NCBI GenBank assembly: GCA_039809905.1
Contig: JBDHVY010000001.1
Coordinates: 990,001-1,022,000, forward strand
Length of the DNA: 32,000 bases
Reading direction: 5' to 3'
Source: Candidatus Babelota bacterium
GTDB taxonomy: Bacteria; Babelota; Babeliae; Babelales; Vermiphilaceae
The notes under the pieces were generated by a model. That model saw only the letters and a list, made by a program, of their open reading frames with translations, ran no database searches and was not told the DNA's origin. Below are positions 4,080 to 32,000 of the stretch, piece by piece (positions within the stretch are counted from its first letter, which is position 1; every line of letters starts with the position of its first letter). The position numbers and the translations under genes are program-made.

Positions 4080-5207
4080 ATGTTAGATCGTTTAAAGCTC
4101 ATCGTTGAATTGCAAAACGTTGCCGATAAACTATTTGTTGATACAACGCCATCATATCATCGTGCTCAAGATGTGTGGCAAGCTATTATTGCTGATCCAA
4201 CATTCATATATAAAGTCCGGCAGGTGCATGATGCTCCATGGCCAGTTCCTTTGTGGGTAGCCGATTTGGCAGATGTTATTTCAATTCAAAAAATTATCGA
4301 ACCATACATAGCTATTTCTGTTGATGGATCTCAGATTTATCCCGATCGGCATAATGTTTTATCATGTTTTTTAATCAACACGGGTTCTGTTGTTTTACCA
4401 TACGGCACTGAAAACACCAAAGTTCAATTATTTTCTGATCCAACAGTATTTGCGGGAGTTGATGAGCATCAACAGCCATTTACTACCGATGGCGTTAATT
4501 GTAAACGCCAAGAATTGGAATTGCGAGCTGGTCTTGATATAGCAAAGAAGATAAAACATGAATATCAAAATGCTACATCATTGCTATTATTTGATGGATC
4601 TCTGATTTTTTGGCATTTGTCATCGAAGGAAATCGGTCTTAGAGATCAGTTTTTGAACGCATATCTTGCATTATTAGATGAGCTTTATGCTGAAAAAATA
4701 CCGGTATGTTGGTATATTAGTATGCCAAAAAGTAAAGAACTGATGAGTTTGGTTCGTTTATATTTATGTAATTTTGATACGAAAAAAAAAGAATTATATG
4801 AATGTGTTGATGCAGTTATTGATAGCGGCATTATGTATGGCGTATTGGAACCATATACGCGGTCTATTGTTTTTAGTAACCATAGCAGTATTAGTGAATA
4901 TTACCCAAATCATTTAAAACCATTCTTTTTTTATCTTCACACGGGTAATGAAATTGGACGTGTTGAAATACCATCATGGGTTGCTCAAGATGAGCATATG
5001 CTTGATGTGATTGCACAAATTGTTATTGATCAGTGTGTTAAAGGGGGAGGATATCCGGTAGCTCTTGCAGAAGCTCATGAGCAAGCGGTTGTTAAAGGTC
5101 CTGATCGTGAATTTTTTTATCACTTTTTACAAAAAATGGGTATGGAACGTAACCATACCCAATCTATTTCACGAAAAAGCTTAAAAAAGCGAGGAATTGG
5201 TATTTAA
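4080..5207 (+). CDS. NurA-domain-like nuclease (stand-alone)
   Basis: Motifs recalled from NurA 5'-3' nucleases: AISVDGSQIYPDRH, LLLFDGSLIFWHL, and the C-terminal RVEIPSWV...GGGYPVALAEAHEQAVV. No HerA-like ATPase lies next to it. Confidence 0.5.
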   Translation: MLDRLKLIVELQNVADKLFVDTTPSYHRAQDVWQAIIADPTFIYKVRQVHDAPWPVPLWVADLADVISIQKIIEPYIAISVDGSQIYPDRHNVLSCFLINTGSVVLPYGTENTKVQLFSDPTVFAGVDEHQQPFTTDGVNCKRQELELRAGLDIAKKIKHEYQNATSLLLFDGSLIFWHLSSKEIGLRDQFLNAYLALLDELYAEKIPVCWYISMPKSKELMSLVRLYLCNFDTKKKELYECVDAVIDSGIMYGVLEPYTRSIVFSNHSSISEYYPNHLKPFFFYLHTGNEIGRVEIPSWVAQDEHMLDVIAQIVIDQCVKGGGYPVALAEAHEQAVVKGPDREFFYHFLQKMGMERNHTQSISRKSLKKRGIGI

Positions 5208-5213
5208 CCAGCT

Positions 5214-6344
5214 TTATCCCAAGAACTTTTTAAAGAAGCTGGTGATAAAACCATCTTCACTTGCTTGAGTGCCAACAATATCAGAGTATTCTTGTAGTTT
5301 CTTTTTGGCATCAGCAGATATTTTAGTTGGAATAAAGCACTGGGTAATAATTACCAAGTTACCATTAGTTTTGCCGCGTAGCTTTTGAAAACCTTGGCCA
5401 GCAATAACTATTTTTTCTCCAACAGGGCAACCTTTAGGAATCTTAATAGTGTGCTTTGTACCATCGATATTTTCGATATCAACCTGACATCCTAATGTTA
5501 ATTGTGGATATGTTAGCATTACATTGCAAATAAGGTCATCATTTTCGCGCTTGAATATCTTATCTTCTTTAACGTGAATGCGTAAGAAAAGATCGCCAGC
5601 AGGGCCACCAAAAAGGCCTGCGTCAGCTTTTTCGCTGACACGTAGTTCTGCATTATCAAAAATACCTTTTGGTATGTTCACGGTAAATTTATCATAGCGT
5701 TGAACGCGTGATTGACCGTTACAGCCTCCGCATGGAGTAGGAATCACAAAACCTTTACCGGAACATGCTCCACATGCTTGCGCATACATAAAGAAGCCTT
5801 GCTTATAATGCATTTCGCCAGAACCATTACAGGTTGTACACGTTTGAGCACTTGTTCCTGTACGAGCACCAGAACCATGACAGGTATCACACGTAAAATA
5901 ATGATGGTATGCTATTTCTTTTTTTGTGCCAAGGAAAGCTTCTTGAAGCGTTATTTCTATTTCTTTGGTTAATGAAAGGCCTGCCTGCGGTTGAGGTCCT
6001 TTTTTACGGCGTTGTTTTGCACCACCGCCAAACATAGAACCAAAAATATCCCCAAAATTTTCAAAAATGTCGTCCATATTCATGCCGCCAGCATGCCCAT
6101 GTCCACCACCCATGCCATTATTTACGCCAGCATGGCCAAATTGATCGTATTGAGAACGTTTTTGCGTATCACCGAGCACTTCATATGCTTCAGTAGCTTC
6201 TTTAAATTTTTCTTCAGCAGCTTTATTATCAGGGTTGCGATCAGGATGATACTTCATAGCAAGCTTACGATAAGCCGTTTTTATCTCATCTGTTGAAGCA
6301 GACTGTGCCACGCCTAATATTTTATAGTAATCAGCTTTATTCAT
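5214..6344 (-). CDS. dnaJ: Molecular chaperone DnaJ (type I Hsp40)
   Basis: J domain with HPD (YYKILGV...KYHPDRNP). G/F-rich linker. Four CxxCxGxG zinc-finger repeats ([32 protein letters not shown]). C-terminal substrate-binding domains. Confidence 0.95.
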
Positions 6345-6384
6345 AGATTTTCTCCTCTATTGCAAGTACCCTGACCTATCCCTT

Positions 6385-6657
6385 TTATTCGTTCTCTTCG
6401 CTTGATTCGCTTGGCTCTTCGGTTTGCACATGTTTTTTAGGCTTGTGAGAACGTAAAGCGCCCAATTTAGCTGTACGAAGGTGTTTTCTTTCTTCAAGTA
6501 CATCATAAGCGGTTTGAATTTCTTTAAATTTAGCTTCAGCCATCGCATCTCCAGGGTTACGATCTGGATGGTATTTCATAGCTAAACCACGATATGCAGC
6601 TTTAATTTCATCCCATGATGCTAAAGAATCAAGTCCAAGAACTTTATAGTGTTTCAT
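6385..6657 (-). CDS. Small J-domain-only protein
   Basis: [37 protein letters not shown]...[13 protein letters not shown] followed by a basic then acidic tail. The ATG at 6657 is preferred over the tracked start at 6714. It lies 40 nt upstream of dnaJ on the same strand. Confidence 0.8.
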
Positions 6658-6713
6658 AATAATCCGTATAGTTAAACTGATATTTTTGTGACTAAATTGA
6701 TATTTTCCTTTCA

Positions 6714-6742
6714 ATTATAGCATAAAAATATTTCTATGCTAA
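6714..6742 (-). promoter_or_regulatory. Candidate sigma70 promoter overlapped by a CIRCE-like inverted repeat
   Basis: The minus strand reads TTAGCA-N17-TATAAT with TGc directly 5' of the -10 (-35 at 6737-6742, -10 at 6714-6719). The same sequence TTAGCATAG-N8-TTATGCTAT contains a 7-bp perfect inverted repeat (TAGCATA/TATGCTA). This resembles the outer arms of CIRCE (TTAGCACTC-N9-GAGTGCTAA). Confidence 0.35.
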
Positions 6743-6868
6743 GGGGGAAATACTCTTTTATGAGGGTAACCCCTAAGTATTGGGTATAGGCATCCGTTCC
6801 GGAGAAAAACCTACTTCGCGTAAAACTAGCAAGGCTGCTGACGGAGGAATGGGTATAAAAGGCTGATA

Positions 6869-7417
6869 TTATCGATTTGTATCATTGATTGCGAGAATGA
6901 GCTTCTCATTTTCGGCAGATTGCTTAAAAGGGCGAGGAAGACAGTTATTTTCGAGGCAAAAATGACCTTTTTTTAGGATTGGTTCAAGATTTTCTGGAAC
7001 TGTTAAAACCAGGTAAAATATGCTTGTTGGAGCTAATTTTTCTTCTTCATCAAAATCAAGAATAAGAGTCTGTGTTTTGGGGTTCCATTGGCCATCACAG
7101 ATAAGGTTTTGTTCGATAGCCAAAAATTCTTTGCCACTGTTTTTTCGATAGAGCGAAGCAATCAAGTTATCAAGATTTTCGCCATGCCAGCTGAGATTGA
7201 TTTTATCCACAAAAATGGGATGTTTCGATCTTTTTTTAAAGGTAATACTGCCGATAAGTATCCATTTTCCACCAAAATCCGCGCATTTATTGTCATTGCA
7301 ACCTAGTTCTTGCCATTTTGATTTTAAAATAATATCAAAATTATCTGTTGGATGAGTAATCATGCATGAAAAACTCATGATACTGAGCAATAAAATAAAT
7401 ATGCTGGCTTTCATCAT
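6869..7417 (-). CDS. Secreted hypothetical protein
   Basis: MMKASIFILLLSIMSFSCM signal-like N-terminus, with GGAGA just upstream of the ATGATG at 7417/7414. No recognisable domain. Confidence 0.55.
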   Translation of the reverse strand: MMKASIFILLLSIMSFSCMITHPTDNFDIILKSKWQELGCNDNKCADFGGKWILIGSITFKKRSKHPIFVDKINLSWHGENLDNLIASLYRKNSGKEFLAIEQNLICDGQWNPKTQTLILDFDEEEKLAPTSIFYLVLTVPENLEPILKKGHFCLENNCLPRPFKQSAENEKLILAINDTNR

Positions 7418-21159: not shown

Positions 21160-21687
21160 TTAACTTATAATAGATTTGTTGCGCATTAGATTATGTATTC
21201 GAGAATTTTCTTGTTCAACTAATTCCTTGAGCTCATTTTTGTTTTTTATTTTTGATTTTATATATACAGTGCTTTTGCTAAACCAATAATAACGAGTATG
21301 GTGCCCTAAGTAATTTGTAGGGTTTTCATTTATACAATAATGACCGTCATGCTTTGTTATCTTATTTGGATGATAACCATACATATCTTCTATAGTTTTT
21401 ATTTGATCAAAAATAGCTTTTGTGAGTGGATTCTGTTCATAATCAATACTGAAAAAATAGTTTTTTATTGAAAGCGTAAAGGGAGGCTCATTAAGTTCAG
21501 GATTTTTAATTTCTTTTTTAGAAGTTAATAGGTTTAGTGAATTTATTTTTTTTTGTATATCGGAGATACCATGAAGATCGATATATAGTAATACTAATCT
21601 TTTTTCAATATCATTTAATGATTTATGCATTGCATTAAGATGATATGGTACTATAAAAAATGCCATAATAGAGAACAACTTGATCAC
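21160..21687 (-). CDS. Small secreted protein, unknown function
   Basis: MIKLFSIMAFFIVPYHLNA signal-like N-terminus. The GTG start overlaps the upstream stop (GTGA). Confidence 0.5.
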   Translation of the reverse strand: MIKLFSIMAFFIVPYHLNAMHKSLNDIEKRLVLLYIDLHGISDIQKKINSLNLLTSKKEIKNPELNEPPFTLSIKNYFFSIDYEQNPLTKAIFDQIKTIEDMYGYHPNKITKHDGHYCINENPTNYLGHHTRYYWFSKSTVYIKSKIKNKNELKELVEQENSRIHNLMRNKSIIS

Positions 21688-22442
21688 GATAATTCCTTTT
21701 TTTGTCTAAGCTTGCGCCATTGTGATTCTGCTTTTTCAGGATCAAAGTTGTTGACTCGTTCATCGCATCCTGAATAACGAATGCCAATAAAGGATATGTT
21801 ATACGATTGCAAAGCTTTTTCAACTGATATGAGATATTTCATTTTATCGTCAACGAATATTATTTTTTCAGGATAATAATTCATGTAATCAAAAAGACAT
21901 AATAAAGCCTGGCCTTTATCATTATTGCCACCAAATAAAATGCTGTTTTTATAAAAACAAGGATGTGGCATGGATAGTACTAAATCATCTTGACTGAAAT
22001 CTGGTACTAAAAATTGGATATCGATATTTTCAAGCTGCTCCAGTGTTCTTTCTGCAACAAAAAGACTGCGTGTAGAAAGGGCCATTATAGGGATGTTATA
22101 TTTTATGAGTTGTGATGTCAGAAAAGGAACAATATTTTCTGTTGGTTCCAGATCAACATTAAATTGTGCATAATAAGTGACGGGCAATGCATAATAAATA
22201 GCAGTAAGGTAATCATGGCCTTGCGCCATTTTTTTGTCCACTAAATGGCAAAACCATTCATCGCTGCTCAATTCTTCTGTCGGATGTGCTAGTGTATTAT
22301 CAATATCAAAGATGACTAACGTTCCGGGGGTAATATAATTGAGCACGGTTTCAATTTTATTGCTTTCAATTATCAGGCACTTAATAGATACATTAGAGAA
22401 TAAAACCAACCATAAAATAGATATGAAGTTATATTTTTTCAT
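21684..22442 (-). CDS. Signal-peptide-bearing HAD-like protein (resembles the DUF2608-type HAD-like family, from memory)
   Basis: MKKYNFISILWLVLFSNVSIKC, then HAD motif I LVIFDIDNTLAHP...SSDEWF, and a motif IV-like IIFVDDKMKYL. The start overlaps the ctp stop by 1 nt. Confidence 0.6.
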   Translation of the reverse strand: MKKYNFISILWLVLFSNVSIKCLIIESNKIETVLNYITPGTLVIFDIDNTLAHPTEELSSDEWFCHLVDKKMAQGHDYLTAIYYALPVTYYAQFNVDLEPTENIVPFLTSQLIKYNIPIMALSTRSLFVAERTLEQLENIDIQFLVPDFSQDDLVLSMPHPCFYKNSILFGGNNDKGQALLCLFDYMNYYPEKIIFVDDKMKYLISVEKALQSYNISFIGIRYSGCDERVNNFDPEKAESQWRKLRQKKELS

Positions 22443-27619: not shown

Positions 27620-28768
27620 TTATTTTTTCAATAGAGACTTTTTTACTGCTGCTAGACTATTTAAAATCACTGTTGTTGCTATAACTATTTTAGTTTTATT
27701 GCGAGATGCAAGAGATAATTTATCAGCGGGATAAATTTGTTTTTTGAGCTCATCTACTGTTGGCTGGGTATATTTTAAATCGAGGTCTTTGCATTTAAAA
27801 TATTTCTCATTAAATTTGTGTAATTCATCGATAAACTGTTGAGATTGTTTTTTATGTGATCCATCATCGGTAATAATGATATGGGTTTTTTCGCCCTTAA
27901 GTGCATCATATATTTTTATGGTATCATGATCAGGATTTTCAAGAACGCCATCGTTTTTATGAAAGTGTAATAATATTGGACAAGTAATTTTTCCTCGTAA
28001 TTTCTCGACTTCATTAATTGGTTCTGGGTGATGTGGATCAAAATTATAGTTAGTAACCCTTGGTGCTATTTCGTACTTGATCCCGGAAGAATATGATTTT
28101 TTTAATTGATCCCCAAATAGCATATACACTGCGCTTGCGCTTATTAAGGATGCAAGGTTTATATTACTTTGAGAAGTTTTTCCTTCCAGTGCAGATGAGC
28201 AGATGCTCCATGCTGCTAATGTTCCTGCTGCAAGCGTTGCATGAGATAAATATGTGCTTGCTGTTGAAACTGGTTTATATTTATCTAAGCTGAGAAAGGT
28301 TCCGGTATCTACTAATGCACCATTGTTGATTGCAGCTATTATTTTATCAGCCTCAGCTTTGGAGGTAATTTTAGTGCCTTTAAAATAATCTGGATCGTAA
28401 TTAAGTAATGCAGCTAAACCATTTAATCCCGTTCCAGCACCACAAGAATAACCTACTAATGCAATTGCATCATGACCTTCTTCTACTCGTTCATATAAAT
28501 GATTTGCCAGTTCATGAACAGCCGGCTTTGTATAAAGAACTGCAACATCCCATCTTCCTGGAGAATCCGGGTACACAACGGCTGAATGAGAATCACCTAG
28601 TGTACGAACCCATTGGCGAATTCTTCCATCTTCTCCAAAGCCATGTGAATAAACAACATGAAGCTTTTTTGTAGGTTTTTCATTGCTTTCATTCGTATCA
28701 GTCTTGGTATTGAAAGTAAAGAAAAGCAGACAAGATACAATTGTCTGCTTTTTTATATTTATGTTCAT
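27620..28768 (-). CDS. Secreted alpha/beta-fold hydrolase (esterase/lipase-like)
   Basis: Signal-like N-terminus. Oxyanion-region HVVYSHGFGEDG, nucleophile elbow LVGYSCGAG (GxSxG), and acid/His candidates HFHKNDGVL and DDGSHKK. A ~100-aa hydrophobic insertion may be a lid. The start overlaps the upstream stop (ATGA). Confidence 0.7.
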   Translation of the reverse strand: MNINIKKQTIVSCLLFFTFNTKTDTNESNEKPTKKLHVVYSHGFGEDGRIRQWVRTLGDSHSAVVYPDSPGRWDVAVLYTKPAVHELANHLYERVEEGHDAIALVGYSCGAGTGLNGLAALLNYDPDYFKGTKITSKAEADKIIAAINNGALVDTGTFLSLDKYKPVSTASTYLSHATLAAGTLAAWSICSSALEGKTSQSNINLASLISASAVYMLFGDQLKKSYSSGIKYEIAPRVTNYNFDPHHPEPINEVEKLRGKITCPILLHFHKNDGVLENPDHDTIKIYDALKGEKTHIIITDDGSHKKQSQQFIDELHKFNEKYFKCKDLDLKYTQPTVDELKKQIYPADKLSLASRNKTKIVIATTVILNSLAAVKKSLLKK

Positions 28769-29151
28769 AATTTTTGATGAGCTAAATTAATTATTGCTCC
28801 CTGAATTACACCAGCATCTAGTTCGCATGAACTTGCGTATTCGTTTATTCTGGATGCTAATACTTGATGATTATTTCCTTTTACAAAAAAAACAGTACAA
28901 TGGCATCTGCTGTTGTCGTTCGCAAGTCTGCGTATCAAGTAAGCGTAATGGGTTACAGCTTCTCCTCCAAATGATCTTTCAGCGCTTTCTATCATAGCGG
29001 CTATTTTCTGGTTGGGTATAACGCAATTGCCATCAATGACTGGGAGTTGAAAGTAATGAGTAGAAGAATGTAGAATGATTGCAGATAATGGAATGTTTAC
29101 CATAAATCCACATACTATTAGTATTGAAAAAATTGATTTTTTCATAATCAT
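28765..29151 (-). CDS. Small secreted protein, MIMKKSIF family paralogue 1
   Basis: MIMKKSIFSILIVCGFMVNIPLSA. Shares AE--FGE-VT-H and VFFVKGN blocks with 30460-30807. The first 25 nt region is identical to that paralogue. Confidence 0.6.
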   Translation of the reverse strand: MIMKKSIFSILIVCGFMVNIPLSAIILHSSTHYFQLPVIDGNCVIPNQKIAAMIESAERSFGGEAVTHYAYLIRRLANDNSRCHCTVFFVKGNNHQVLASRINEYASSCELDAGVIQGAIINLAHQKL

Positions 29152-29159
29152 GATTGCCT

Positions 29160-29789
29160 CTATTCTTTATTAATGGTGTTAAGTTTTGTAGGCTCTATAG
29201 TTTTTGGCTTTATGTGAATATTATTATTATGCATTTCCAATGCTTTGCACAAAGCTAAGTTATCTGTATACAGAAATAGTCCATGTGTGGTTTCTTGATC
29301 TTTACCATTAATATTGGCACAAAATACGCAAGGGATTTCAGTAACTGGTTCTTGATCATCTAATTTTTGACCTTTTGGTGACATAATTGGCGCAGTATAG
29401 CGAGTGCCTTTGTGATGCGGATATTTTGGATTATGCTTCATATTGTTAAAAAAATTCTCAGGAGATTCATTATCTTGCTCAAAAAAATCATATTTGCTAG
29501 CGCAAGCTATTGAACTATGAAAAAGATCGCATCCCACGTAGTCAATTATGTTACCAATTGTACTGATACGCTTATTGGAGTAACTATTGTAAACCGGTCT
29601 AACTATTGTTGTCTTAGCTAAATCTTCAGGAGAAATAGGCAAAACATCACCAAGCTCATTTGCATTAAAAGGCATGATAAATGTTTGAGACTTGAGGGCA
29701 GTATTGTTAGTTGATTCTGTTGAATTATTAGCAAAAATAGCAACAGTATAAAATAGTGATAATGGAAGGAGCATTTTTTGTATAGACAT
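29160..29789 (-). CDS. Secreted hypothetical protein (first gene of a three-gene operon)
   Basis: MSIQKMLLPLSLFYTVAIFA signal peptide. Cys-containing, with no recognisable domain. 8-nt gap to the next gene. Confidence 0.55.
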   Translation of the reverse strand: MSIQKMLLPLSLFYTVAIFANNSTESTNNTALKSQTFIMPFNANELGDVLPISPEDLAKTTIVRPVYNSYSNKRISTIGNIIDYVGCDLFHSSIACASKYDFFEQDNESPENFFNNMKHNPKYPHHKGTRYTAPIMSPKGQKLDDQEPVTEIPCVFCANINGKDQETTHGLFLYTDNLALCKALEMHNNNIHIKPKTIEPTKLNTINKE

Positions 29790-29841
29790 TATATATCCTT
29801 TATTAATGTATTATTAATCTCTATTAGATCTTACTAGTTTG

Positions 29842-29869
29842 AGTATATCAAAATCGCAGAAAATGTCAA
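29842..29869 (-). promoter_or_regulatory. Sigma70-type promoter (copy 1 of a duplicated promoter block)
   Basis: The minus strand reads TTGACA (29864-29869)-N16-TGaTATACT (-10 at 29842-29847), about 50 nt upstream of the ATG at 29789. Confidence 0.55.
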
Positions 29870-29897
29870 ATAGAAAATCAATGGATGGTAGGTCGAG

Positions 29898-30278
29898 TTA
29901 ATTAGCGTTTTGTGGTTTTTTATCTATAAGAATTAACGTAGAGTGGCTTTGTTGTAGTTCATTGTAATATTTTGTTAAGGATGCATCATCTCCTGTTGTT
30001 GCGATACCTATAAATGTGCATACATCAAAATATTTGGTTCTTTTGCCATATTCATTTAATGCGTATATTTCGTATAAAAAATCATCAGCTTTTAACTTTT
30101 GCTGGGCTTGCTGTAAGAATTCATTTTTTCTCATTTCACCAAGAAAGCATTTTTCATTATGATTAACAGCCCATAACATCCTCTTGCTGAATCTATGATC
30201 AGTTGCTTGGATTGATTGAGGTAAATGAGCGATAGAACCTAAAGTAATTACAGAAAAAAGTATAGATTTTATAGTCAT
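29898..30278 (-). CDS. Small secreted protein, unknown function
   Basis: MTIKSILFSVITLGSIAHLPQSIQA signal peptide. Similar size and position to the MIMKKSIF-family genes, but only weak similarity to them. Confidence 0.55.
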   Translation of the reverse strand: MTIKSILFSVITLGSIAHLPQSIQATDHRFSKRMLWAVNHNEKCFLGEMRKNEFLQQAQQKLKADDFLYEIYALNEYGKRTKYFDVCTFIGIATTGDDASLTKYYNELQQSHSTLILIDKKPQNAN

Positions 30279-30318
30279 AATGATTCCTTTTCTATTGTAA
30301 TAATTGCTTTTTATTATA

Positions 30319-30346
30319 AATATAGCACAATCGCAGAAAATGTCAA
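30319..30346 (-). promoter_or_regulatory. Sigma70-type promoter (copy 2 of the duplicated promoter block)
   Basis: The minus strand reads TTGACA (30341-30346)-N16-TGcTATATT (-10 at 30319-30324), about 40 nt upstream of the ATG at 30278. Confidence 0.55.
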
Positions 30347-30404
30347 ATAGAAAACCTTGCGCTGAAAAGAATCATTCAGACGTTGTTTTTGATGCAAGAA
30401 AAAA

Positions 30405-30431
30405 GCCTTATGCAAGGCATAAAGCTTTTTT
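30405..30431 (-). terminator. Rho-independent terminator after the 30460-30807 gene
   Basis: The minus-strand RNA reads GCUUUAUGC-cuu-GCAUAAGGC (9 bp including one G-U pair) followed by U6. It lies 29 nt after the stop. Confidence 0.6.
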
Positions 30432-30459
30432 CATAAATATGGTAAAATTTCAGTATTAT

Positions 30460-30807
30460 TTAACTTTTAGATGGCTCATTTTTGAAGTATTTTGCATGAT
30501 ATTTACCAAATGCTTTTTCTAATTCGGTGTCATCATTTCCTTTTACGAAAACGATTAAATATTTACAATCACCTTTATCATCAGGAAATCTGGTTATGGT
30601 ATGCATGTGTTGTGTTACCGGTTCTCCAAAAATTTTTTCAGCTTCATTAATAAACTCATTTATTTCTGTTCTATACATAAAGCAAACAGATGGATAAGTT
30701 GCTCTAGGAGTAAATGTCCTACAAACTGCGTGGGCTTGCGTGTCAGCTAAAATAATATTCGTTAATCCACATATTAATACTAAAAAAATTGATTTTTTCA
30801 TAATCAT
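30460..30807 (-). CDS. Small secreted protein, MIMKKSIF family paralogue 2
   Basis: MIMKKSIFLVLICGLTNIILADTQA, AEKIFGEPVTQH and LIVFVKGND. AAGGA RBS upstream. Confidence 0.6.
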   Translation of the reverse strand: MIMKKSIFLVLICGLTNIILADTQAHAVCRTFTPRATYPSVCFMYRTEINEFINEAEKIFGEPVTQHMHTITRFPDDKGDCKYLIVFVKGNDDTELEKAFGKYHAKYFKNEPSKS

Positions 30808-30958
30808 ATATAATTCCTTAGATAATTAATGTTTCTTTTTTTTAAGATACTATAATTTCAAAAAAATACCAAATAGAAAAAACATTTCTGTTCTATTGCA
30901 AATAGTATCGATAACAATGTATTTTTTTTAAAATTACTATCGTCAAGAAGGGGATAAA

Positions 30959-32000
30959 ATGAAGTATGCATCGAAAATAGGCATAATGACGGGTGTTGTT
31001 GTATTGTTTTTTATGATACACAGAGGGATTGATGCTTTCGATATCTGGGAAACATACGATAAAGCAAAAAATGCAGCAACCTATGCAAAAGAAAGAGTTT
31101 CTAGTGCTGTTTCAACGGGGATTGAATATTTCACAGGGGGTAAAGAACCAACAGCCATCAGAATTAATCCTTATAAAAATACTGTTGCATATATACGTAA
31201 AGGCAATGAATTAAATCCTCAAGAACGGCAATATAGAGAAAAACGACAACCAAAAGTAAAACAAGCGCTTGAAAAAGTAGTTGGCAGATCATTAAATGAT
31301 TCGCAAGTTCCGCGTATATCAATTGTGGCGAGTGGCGGTGGCTATAGAGCTATGTTAGGAACAATAGGAAGTTTGTTGGCGCTCGAAAAAATCGGAATTC
31401 TTGATGCTGCCATGTATATGGTTGGATTATCTGGTTCAACATGGGCAATAGCTTCATGGTTATCAACGGGAATGTCTTTACAAAATTTTAAAGATTACAT
31501 TCAAAAAACGATAGAAAAAAATATTCGTGTTCGGAGTATAAGTGAAACAAAAAATATTATTGATATGCTTTCGGTGAAACTTGTATTTGATGAACCAATA
31601 ACAACCGTTGATATGTACGGGAGTTTACTTGCAAATCGTTTATTGAGTCATTATGGAACTGATGCGCAAAGAGTTTATCTATCGCAACAAGCTGAACGAA
31701 TCAAAAATGCGGATGTTCCGTATCCTATTTATACGTCAATTGATGCACGCGAAGCAGTTGCGCGAGAGCCGCATTGGTTTGAATACACGGCACATGAAGT
31801 TGGATCGCCCTATTTTGCTGTATATGTTCCGAGCTGGGCATATGGACGTCTTTTTGATAATGGGCAATCAATAAATTTTGCTCCAGAGCAGAGTTTAGGA
31901 TTTTTGATGGGCACATGGGGATCTGCATATGGTGTGCATGTTGCAAGAGCATGGGAAGATATTTCAGAATCTATTCCGGGTACGACTATCAAAAAAGCAA
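30959..32000 (+). CDS. cPLA2-type (PLA2_B / lysophospholipase catalytic domain) phospholipase, 3'-truncated by the window edge
   Basis: This ORF is absent from the supplied track because it has no stop in the window. I translated it by hand from the ATG at 30959 without finding any stop. There is an N-terminal anchor IGIMTGVVVLFFMI. Then ISIVASGGGYRAMLGTIGSLLALEKIGILDAAMYMVGLSGSTW, which nearly mirrors the human cPLA2-alpha GGGFRAM...GLSGSTW catalytic-Arg/Ser region as I recall it. Confidence 0.8.
   Translation, partial: MKYASKIGIMTGVVVLFFMIHRGIDAFDIWETYDKAKNAATYAKERVSSAVSTGIEYFTGGKEPTAIRINPYKNTVAYIRKGNELNPQERQYREKRQPKVKQALEKVVGRSLNDSQVPRISIVASGGGYRAMLGTIGSLLALEKIGILDAAMYMVGLSGSTWAIASWLSTGMSLQNFKDYIQKTIEKNIRVRSISETKNIIDMLSVKLVFDEPITTVDMYGSLLANRLLSHYGTDAQRVYLSQQAERIKNADVPYPIYTSIDAREAVAREPHWFEYTAHEVGSPYFAVYVPSWAYGRLFDNGQSINFAPEQSLGFLMGTWGSAYGVHVARAWEDISESIPGTTIKKA

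Follow-up and report, generated by a model that had tools for sequence, protein, structure and literature searches.

Our findings identify a bacterial member of the PLA2_B family, to which human cytosolic phospholipase A2 (cPLA2) and the phospholipases B (PLBs) of fungi belong, at the 3' end of a 32,000-nucleotide stretch of DNA from a Candidatus Babelota bacterium (contig JBDHVY010000001.1, positions 990,001 to 1,022,000 of the forward strand; the whole stretch is referred to here as the window). We consider it probable that this gene, here called the lipase gene, encodes a Sec-exported phospholipase of the cPLA2/fungal-PLB type, built around a Ser/Asp dyad, with which a parasite of the phylum Dependentiae deacylates host lipids, and that its ancestor was exchanged with a eukaryote early on. 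The evidence that carries this reading comes from the integrity of the gene, the conservation of its catalytic residues and predicted fold, the pattern of its N-terminus, and the distribution and genomic setting of its relatives.

The ATG at 30959 opens a frame of 347 codons that is free of stops up to base 32000. An initial annotation of this DNA had read the same frame by hand, and direct translation reproduces it, including the exact motif string SGGGYRAMLGTIGSLLALEKIGILDAAMYMVGLSGSTWAIASW; that the frame was missing from the list of open reading frames (ORFs) supplied at the time is probably due only to such lists omitting frames that run off the window end. An in-frame stop lies 9 codons 5' of this ATG, with no ATG, GTG or TTG in between, and a promoter and terminator scan around the gene was uninformative, returning fewer consensus promoter-like sites than shuffled sequence did. 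The full gene product (P0001) has 556 amino acids, is 100% identical and is found on a bacterial contig of 1,228,744 bases. An independent Logan contig (L001), identical to the window across an overlap of 5170 bases, holds the full ORF at its positions 4129-5799, where the gene extends 629 bases past the window end to a stop at the window-equivalent position 32629. The gene is therefore intact and not a pseudogene, a possibility that the initial annotation had raised, and the window contains its 5' two-thirds.

Profile, pairwise and structural comparisons bear out the earlier assignment to the PLA2_B/cPLA2 family. The partial ORF already scores 86.6 bits against Pfam PLA2_B (PF01735; E=1.7e-24, cutoff 23) and the full 556-residue protein 91.2 bits against the same cutoff. 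Human cPLA2-alpha is matched by the partial ORF at E=1.2e-30 and is the best match of the full protein among all PDB sequences (1cjy, E=1e-43), followed by cPLA2-delta (5ixc/5iz5, 3.5e-37). The alignment with 1cjy falls into two blocks, residues 84-349 with human 149-422 and residues 383-551 with human 542-717, that span both halves of the catalytic domain, and by these scores the match is far beyond chance. Within it, S125-GGG-Y-R130 aligns with human S195-GGG-F-R200 and G156-L-S158-G-S with G226-L-S228-G-S; the human motifs that the initial annotation had cited (SGGGFRAM...YVAGLSGSTW) are present in the 1cjy chain, and Arg and Ser stand 28 residues apart in both proteins. The codon at 31430-31432, proposed as that of the nucleophile, is tct and encodes Ser158, the counterpart of human Ser228. 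The catalytic aspartate that was to be sought downstream is encoded 126 bases past the window end, as D390 in FVDAGIDFNLPYPP, and aligns with human D549 in VVDSGLTFNLPYP. The distance from serine to aspartate is 232 residues as against 321 in human cPLA2-alpha, so that the cap is about 89 residues shorter than in the human enzyme.

In an alignment of 25 relatives reaching down to 27% identity, S125, G126-128, R130, S158, G159, W162 and D390 are invariant. The AlphaFold model of the protein has a predicted local distance difference test score (pLDDT) of 85.7 and a predicted template-modelling score of 0.86, and Foldseek aligns this model with 1cjy at a template-modelling (TM) score of 0.72 (E 7e-28) and with 5iz5 at 0.71 (E likewise about 1e-27), as against only 0.16-0.32 for VipD, ExoU, PlpD, CapE/CapV and patatin. 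The predicted structure thus presents the cPLA2-type alpha/beta fold with its cap, in the shortened form noted above. Pfam returned no match to Patatin (PF01734) at E<=0.01 and none to a C2 domain, and the 1cjy alignment begins at human residue 149, past the C2 domain. The sole match in NCBIfam, a LAPAL phage protein at 21 bits against a cutoff of 60, was taken as chance. Together, the alignments and the model establish the protein as a PLA2_B/cPLA2 family member with conserved Arg, Ser and Asp residues at the predicted catalytic positions. The catalytic domain is under purifying selection with its Ser/Asp dyad intact, and the enzyme is apparently an active phospholipase.

The N-terminus had been interpreted as a membrane anchor. 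The hydrophobic segment on which that interpretation relied is real and occupies residues 7-20, but the anchor role is not supported and the segment reads better as a signal peptide: its uncharged core is only 14-15 residues long, is preceded by two lysines and is followed by IDA/FD (the slash marks cleavage, here predicted after residue 26 and before F27), and [IVL]-x-A/[VFI]-D stands at this place in every one of the closest relatives. Among 164 full-length N-termini of the family, the median uncharged core is 18 residues, a lysine or arginine precedes the core in 152 and an AxA-like site follows in 152. Neither a lipobox cysteine nor a twin arginine can be read in the N-terminal sequence of the protein. 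The n/h/c pattern, assessed heuristically, together with the AxA-type site recurring through the family, makes the N-terminus look like a cleavable Sec signal peptide rather than an anchor. In this respect the protein departs from the group IVA enzymes, which are cytosolic and carry no secretion signal, since its signal-peptide-like N-terminus (again by heuristic) is conserved in the family. Only two cysteines, C504 and C512, occur in the mature protein. Both belong to a CxnCxT..F.Y motif that no fewer than 170 of 301 family members share and that the corresponding aligned part of human cPLA2-alpha lacks; this suggests a C504-C512 disulfide, which would fit export. Residues 27-70, between the signal peptide and the catalytic domain, have no Pfam match and lack the beta-sandwich module that 30% of the family carries, and the helix that AlphaFold places at residues 29-58 has a pLDDT of 37-51. 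The coordinates of these elements are collected in Table 1.

Table 1. Elements of the lipase gene within the window (all coordinates refer to the window; residue numbers to the 556-residue protein).
Element	Coordinates	Strand	Residues	Basis or remark
Putative Shine-Dalgarno sequence GAAGGGG	30947..30953	+		5 nt before the start codon; read from sequence
Start codon and predicted Sec signal peptide (MKYASK / IGIMTGVVVLFFMI / HRGIDA)	30959..31036	+	1-26	n/h/c heuristic
Linker	31037..31168	+	27-70	Predicted long low-confidence helix; at the position of the cPLA2-alpha C2 domain
PLA2_B/cPLA2-type catalytic domain, first 278 residues	31169..32000	+	71-347	PF01735 and 1cjy alignment
Predicted oxyanion-hole glycines and phosphate-binding Arg (G126-G127-G128-Y129-R130)	31334..31348	+	126-130	Human G196-198 and R200
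Predicted nucleophile elbow (G156-L-S158-G-S160)	31424..31438	+	156-160	Ser158 codon tct at 31430-31432; human Ser228

The genomic setting of the lipase gene is that of a housekeeping region. The window, of about 34% guanine plus cytosine (GC), mixes ORFans with gyrB, a PP-loop ATPase gene, dnaJ, nifU, rpsI, glmS, a tRNA-type deaminase gene, dksA, an S41 peptidase gene, an Fe/Mn superoxide dismutase (SOD) gene and lysS, and downstream of the lipase gene follow recJ, cmk, genes for two ankyrin-repeat proteins of more than 750 residues, and lon. Lysyl-tRNA synthetase (LysRS) and RecJ share 87-88% identity with their counterparts in candidate division TM6 bacterium SOIL31 and in a 1.5-Mb metagenome-assembled genome, and the genome from which the window comes is that of a member of the Dependentiae (TM6, order Babeliales), of roughly 1.2 Mb. 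With a GC content of 0.357 and a GC content at third codon positions (GC3) of 0.221, the lipase gene matches gyrB, lysS and recJ (housekeeping GC3 0.20-0.24). The order S41 peptidase, SOD, LysRS, a variable slot, PLA2_B, a second variable slot, RecJ and Cmk is found again in about 14 of the 31 related loci, where LysRS shares 60-88% identity with that of the window, and the position between lysS and recJ is kept even for the long-form member P0171 and the very divergent P0368 and P0365.

A scan of 185,579 GTDB species genomes with two peptide patterns drawn from 12 closer sequences returned at least 31 full-length loci. Among the matches listed, every one that bears a taxon name belongs to TM6, Dependentiae or Babeliales; of the loci labelled 'uncultured Pseudomonadota' or 'uncultured bacterium', the checkable ones share the Dependentiae synteny, and several genomes carry two PLA2_B copies. 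Within the reach of this two-pattern scan, the bacterial distribution among the matches listed is thus patchy and limited to eukaryote-associated lineages. An apparent wider occurrence was rejected: look-alike loci (L033-L066) from Acidobacteria, Actinobacteria, Planctomycetes and other phyla are Patatin proteins (52-75 bits), fall below threshold on PLA2_B and share with the lipase only the SGGGYRAML...GxSxG block. An exhaustive profile search of 1.84 billion representatives gave 1,460 clusters at E<=1e-30, and since the best 150 of these all lie below 1e-139 and all belong to one bacterial clade, the close family alone numbers more than 150 clusters at 50% identity. The median identity within the sampled family is 32%, and only the bacterial clade appears among the best 120 matches of the single-protein and profile searches. 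Atypical composition, an island context and loss of synteny, as signs of recent acquisition, were not found. The synteny, the GC and GC3 values, the more than 150 clusters and the median identity of 32% together mark the clade as old, vertically inherited and much diversified rather than a recent import. In the initial annotation an ancient and widespread bacterial clade was to count against a eukaryotic source; such a clade does exist, but its taxon-named full-length matches listed all fall in one phylum of eukaryote parasites, and for this reason an old transfer between eukaryotes and Dependentiae, in either direction, stays plausible.

Phylogenetic placement was approached with a distance-based neighbour-joining tree of 50 sequences (200 bootstraps) that included four eukaryotic proteins, two human and two fungal, and no protist sequences. 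The human alpha and delta sequences were reconstructed from PDB alignments, and the fungal 'lysophospholipases' (Powellomyces and Mucor) surfaced in a search with a virus-like copy, P0117, described below. The human pair and the fungal pair are each recovered with 100% bootstrap; the eukaryotes do not form one group, and the human pair falls among Dependentiae branches on a weak backbone. The window protein is 31% identical to human cPLA2-alpha and 31-32% identical to the fungal proteins, which are in turn 25-30% identical to the human ones. The PLA2_B family is widespread in animals and fungi, and because the bacterial matches listed that bear a taxon name come from a single phylum of parasites of eukaryotes, an exchange between some eukaryote and the stem of the Dependentiae, in one direction or the other, is the most economical reading. 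Most likely, the gene was exchanged with a eukaryote once, early in the evolution of the Dependentiae, and was then inherited vertically, duplicated and remodelled.

The virus-like copy is an observation in its own right. P0117 is a divergent PLA2_B protein without a signal peptide, encoded at 5654-7411 of a 10.9-kb metagenome scaffold from ENA (L067), where its neighbours encode a MutS domain V protein with a sub-threshold HNH match, a DUF5901 protein with a weak capsid-P8 match, a topoisomerase IB and a Ser/Thr kinase, a gene content that suggests a giant virus. Its best matches are Dependentiae proteins (E 1e-43), ahead of fungal ones (1e-24), and it has no close relatives. Pattern scans of IMG/VR gave nothing convincing and BFVD held only patatin-type viral folds, so the giant-virus lead was set aside as one isolated contig.

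What such an enzyme might do is suggested by what is known of the bacteria that carry it. The TM6/Dependentiae are described as obligate intracellular parasites of protists with genomes of 1.0-1.5 Mb, whose core functions include Sec export and type II secretion, the latter with two copies of gspD, and which lack both fatty-acid synthesis and degradation, their route to host lipids being unknown (PMC4776705). A second study likewise reports that fatty-acid synthesis is absent and that host lipids are used by an unknown mechanism, and describes for Chromulinavorax signal peptides on 44% of coding sequences, outer-membrane vesicles in the food vacuole, host-membrane disarray, escape from the food vacuole and lytic exit (PMC6561590). 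As these bacteria cannot make fatty acids, an exported phospholipase A or B could harvest host lipids or breach host membranes. We propose that signal peptidase I would remove residues 1-26 and that the mature enzyme would fold in the periplasm, probably with the C504-C512 disulfide in place, before release through the type II secretion system core to the phylum or on outer-membrane vesicles. The missing C2 domain would close the calcium-dependent C2 route of membrane recruitment. Outside the cell, the enzyme would deacylate host glycerophospholipids as a phospholipase A, a lysophospholipase or both (the substrate and the A1, A2, B or lyso class are not readable from sequence), and the products, fatty acids and lysolipids, would supply a bacterium that lacks fatty-acid synthesis, while the same activity might, additionally or instead, breach the food vacuole or other host membranes. 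The 'host-membrane-targeting effector' of the initial annotation is in this sense a plausible description.

Several points weigh against this reading, among them the limit on specificity just given. The signal peptide is a heuristic call that fits a protein stopping in the periplasm as well as one released from the cell, and no secretion-system genes occur in the window or its extension. The gene sits among housekeeping genes and not in an effector island, a setting that suits housekeeping lipid remodelling just as well. The cultured Dependentiae (Babela, Chromulinavorax, Vermiphilus) are absent from the named matches listed, and part of the phylum may lack the enzyme. On the side of origin, the split between the four eukaryotes and the bacteria has a bootstrap of 18% in a tree whose backbone is without resolution, and the two-pattern scan of GTDB leaves other bacterial phyla possible.

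The main rival to an exported, host-directed phospholipase, which we regard as decidedly the less probable of the two, is a housekeeping envelope enzyme: a lysophospholipase or transacylase of the periplasm or cell surface that remodels host-derived lipids for the bacterium's own membranes. Enzymes of the cPLA2 family also have lysophospholipase and transacylase activity, and a simple Sec signal unaccompanied by any recognisable effector signal would suit such a role, as would vertical inheritance at a conserved position among lysS, recJ, cmk and sod and a base composition like that of housekeeping genes. Membranes that must be made from host lipids in the absence of fatty-acid synthesis (PMC4776705, PMC6561590) would give it work to do. 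However, unless an inhibitor restrained it, a phospholipase of broad specificity kept so close would endanger the bacterium's own membranes, and no conserved partner gene adjoins that of the lipase, both flanking slots being variable. Repeated duplication and shuffling of N-terminal modules are, moreover, more typical of host-interaction proteins, and the cultured Dependentiae are not among the named matches listed.

With regard to origin, it is unlikely, though worth weighing, that the family is native to the Dependentiae or other bacteria and that the eukaryotic cPLA2 and PLB enzymes derive from it, or that several transfers occurred independently. The failure of the eukaryotes to group together in the tree, with its poorly supported split, would agree with this, as would a divergence within the bacterial family (median 32% identity) as deep as that between human and fungal enzymes, and the copy on the virus-like contig, nearer to Dependentiae than to fungi, points to a gene that moves between residents of protist cells. 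Yet the backbone support is too weak for a positive statement in this direction, the comparison includes four eukaryotic sequences only and none from protists, and the bacterial taxon-named full-length matches listed all come from one eukaryote-dependent phylum, set against a family widespread in animals and fungi. An early exchange with a eukaryote therefore remains our preferred account of how the Dependentiae came by the gene.

The version put forward in the initial annotation, a recently acquired, eukaryote-derived effector that is membrane-anchored and lies in a local cluster of secreted hydrolases, is largely refuted and now very improbable. It drew on a family typical of eukaryotes (the PF01735/PLA2_B papers we found concern fungi and animals), on the N-terminal hydrophobic segment, and on the five signal-peptide ORFans directly upstream. 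Horizontal acquisition as a recent, island-borne event is contradicted by the housekeeping-like GC3 and lack of any compositional anomaly, by a lysS-recJ position that is kept where LysRS is only 60% identical, and by a close family of more than 150 clusters at 50% identity with the low median identity given above, and an anchor by the short core and the conserved AxA-type site that follows it. As for the neighbouring secreted hydrolase genes, the upstream ORFans are genome-specific and carry no Pfam-supported hydrolase domain; the claim is weakly true of one candidate, at 27620-28768, which has sub-threshold alpha/beta-hydrolase matches (E about 0.02), and the nearest Pfam-supported hydrolase is the S41 C-terminal-processing peptidase 7 kb upstream. 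An artefact, whether eukaryotic host DNA mis-assembled into a bacterial bin or a misread patatin-like lipase, could be suspected from the eukaryote-like sequence and from GGGxR and GxSxG motifs that patatins share, and is refuted by the presence of the gene, identically flanked, on an independent Logan contig, a source contig of 1.23 Mb, bacterial genes on both sides, a Shine-Dalgarno sequence, a single uninterrupted ORF of neighbour-like composition, and the absence of a Patatin Pfam match with TM scores of about 0.3 for patatin-type folds as against 0.72 for cPLA2.

Among characterised systems, the exported phospholipase proposed here shares with human cPLA2-alpha (PLA2G4A, group IVA; 1cjy) and cPLA2-delta (PLA2G4D; 5ixc, 5iz5) the Pfam family, about 30% identity in the catalytic domain, the Arg, Ser and Asp residues, an identical Arg-Ser spacing, a predicted fold at TM 0.71-0.72 and a C-terminal FNLPYP...F.Y block. 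In contrast to the human enzymes, it is bacterial, has no C2 domain and bears a predicted Sec signal where they reside in the cytosol; its shorter cap stands against a human cap that holds the lid and the regulatory phosphorylation loop, and its conserved cysteine pair has no counterpart in the aligned stretch of cPLA2-alpha. The PLA2_B 'Lysophospholipase' proteins of the fungi Powellomyces and Mucor resemble it in their catalytic domain, at the 31-32% identity given above, though they are longer (786-800 as against 556 residues). Characterised fungal PLBs, such as yeast Plb1-3 and Cryptococcus Plb1, are secreted by way of a signal peptide, lack C2 and act as virulence factors on host membranes; they are also heavily glycosylated and often anchored by glycosylphosphatidylinositol. 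Compared by description, these PLBs are the closest match in both architecture (signal peptide and PLA2_B domain, no C2) and lifestyle.

Patatin-like effectors (ExoU, Legionella VipD, Rickettsia Pat1/Pat2 and PlpD) and the proteins CapE/CapV of cyclic-oligonucleotide-based antiphage signalling systems share, at the level of the superfamily, the Ser/Asp dyad with its GGGxR and GxSxG motifs, the effectors also the theme of bacterial phospholipases directed against host membranes, and ExoU gives a weak sequence match (E about 3e-3). They belong, however, to a different family, Patatin (PF01734), and the window protein reaches TM scores of only 0.16-0.32 with them. Such effectors reach the host through type III, IV or V systems, and host cofactors often switch them on. 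Nutritional or egress lipases of the host-dependent bacteria Borrelia, Vibrio and Rickettsia, none of which is known to be of the PLA2_B type, are functional analogues of the proposed role only, likened here by their described function. The respective reports describe Borrelia BB0562 as a lipase by which a fatty-acid auxotroph obtains free fatty acids (PMC8409650), Vibrio VPA0226 as a type-II-secreted lipase for egress (PMC7434443), and a secreted Rickettsia lipase as an aid to cytosolic colonisation (PMC12507273).

Relatives of the lipase vary most in front of the catalytic domain. In 90 of 301 family members, hidden Markov models detect one to three copies of an N-terminal module of about 100 residues that has no Pfam match and follows the motif I.L.N.T...YVA.YY...RP.R...YDR.L...NVGD..G..FYI...G.L.GY; P0308 seemingly has four copies by eye. 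Carriers include P0171, P0055, P0246 and P0308 and the loci L008, L010, L012-L018, L021-L023, L027, L028, L032 and L071. The module is confidently predicted to be an all-beta sandwich (pLDDT 85-93), occupies the position of the C2 domain in cPLA2-alpha and is absent from the subclade of the window protein. Homology to C2 was considered for it and found no support, with no Pfam match and only generic beta-sandwiches in a domain-level Foldseek search (E 0.04-0.2). The slot between lysS and the lipase holds, in another Dependentiae genome, a toxin-antitoxin-like pair of a nucleotidyltransferase and a nucleotidyltransferase-substrate-binding protein (L071 1702-2396). At L072 7001-14350, two PLA2_B paralogues of 954 and 785 residues lie about 2 kb apart with two small ORFs between them, adjoining a Tn5-type transposase, a resolvase and a Cas12f-like TNB gene. 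Beside the divergent member P0119, on a contig of 27% GC, a signal-peptide protein (L068 3180-3782) has sub-threshold matches to RING-H2-type zinc fingers (zf-rbx1, 21.9 bits against a cutoff of 31) and may be a eukaryote-like mimic of an E3 ligase.

In the window itself, the 3.4-kb gap between lysS and the lipase gene is filled by five consecutive ORFs on the reverse strand (27620-30807; 382, 128, 209, 126 and 115 residues), all with signal-peptide-like N-termini and none with a Pfam domain. No tblastn match to them was found in the 31 related Dependentiae loci, where the gap shrinks to as little as about 0.6 kb, and the stretch has the look of an islet of secreted ORFans, peculiar to this genome, within a variable slot. 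The 382-residue signal-peptide protein at 27620-28768 (reverse strand) shows an HGFG...GYSCG pattern typical of the oxyanion and nucleophile motifs of alpha/beta-hydrolases, with sub-threshold Pfam matches to Abhydrolase_6 (E 0.019) and DUF726 (E 0.017). Two small paralogous ORFs of the islet (28765-29151 and 30460-30807, reverse strand) both start with MIMKKSIF, share the core ...FG..(A)VT(H/Q)...R...D...C....VFVKGN... and are copies of a duplicated, putatively secreted protein. Just 3' of recJ-cmk, at L001 9468-14053 (window-equivalent 36298-40883, forward strand), the adjacent ankyrin-repeat proteins of 777 and 751 residues are of a kind typical of host interaction in Dependentiae, and the related loci do not conserve them. 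Further upstream, a NurA-domain nuclease (4080-5207, forward strand, 92.7 bits), of a kind best known from archaea, and a DUF2608 protein (21684-22442, reverse strand, 143 bits) lie amid housekeeping genes, and the DUF2608 gene keeps its place beside the S41 peptidase in L002 and L004.

Some relatives already bear the automatically assigned names 'phospholipase A2' or 'cytosolic phospholipase A2' (from the Joint Genome Institute). The three main Dependentiae genome papers (PMC4776705, PMC6561590 and the Babela paper) make no mention of a phospholipase, full-text literature searches that paired the names of the phylum with those of the enzyme and its family gave nothing relevant, and we found no paper describing a bacterial member of the otherwise animal and fungal PLA2_B family. 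The bacterial protein is thus new within a known enzyme family, and its kind is not surprising for a parasite of protists. A conserved, predicted-exported and catalytically intact enzyme of the cPLA2/PLB type is a concrete candidate to fill the host-lipid gap of the Dependentiae. The C2-less, short-cap version of 530 residues could be of use as a small model for the catalytic domain of cPLA2, and the bacterial clade may bear on the origin of cPLA2 and on how genes move between protists, the bacteria that parasitise them and giant viruses. As a tentative extension, for which we hold only limited confidence, the exported cPLA2-type family might be the missing host-lipid acquisition machinery of the Dependentiae, ancient and eukaryote-derived, fixed at the base of the Babeliales and diversified by duplication and by swapping of a beta-sandwich module, which would target membranes, into the position of C2; it would release fatty acids and lysolipids from the membranes of the host for bacteria whose own fatty-acid synthesis is lost. 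If that reading is true, the lipase would be a lineage-defining gene of parasitism, comparable to the ATP/ADP translocase.

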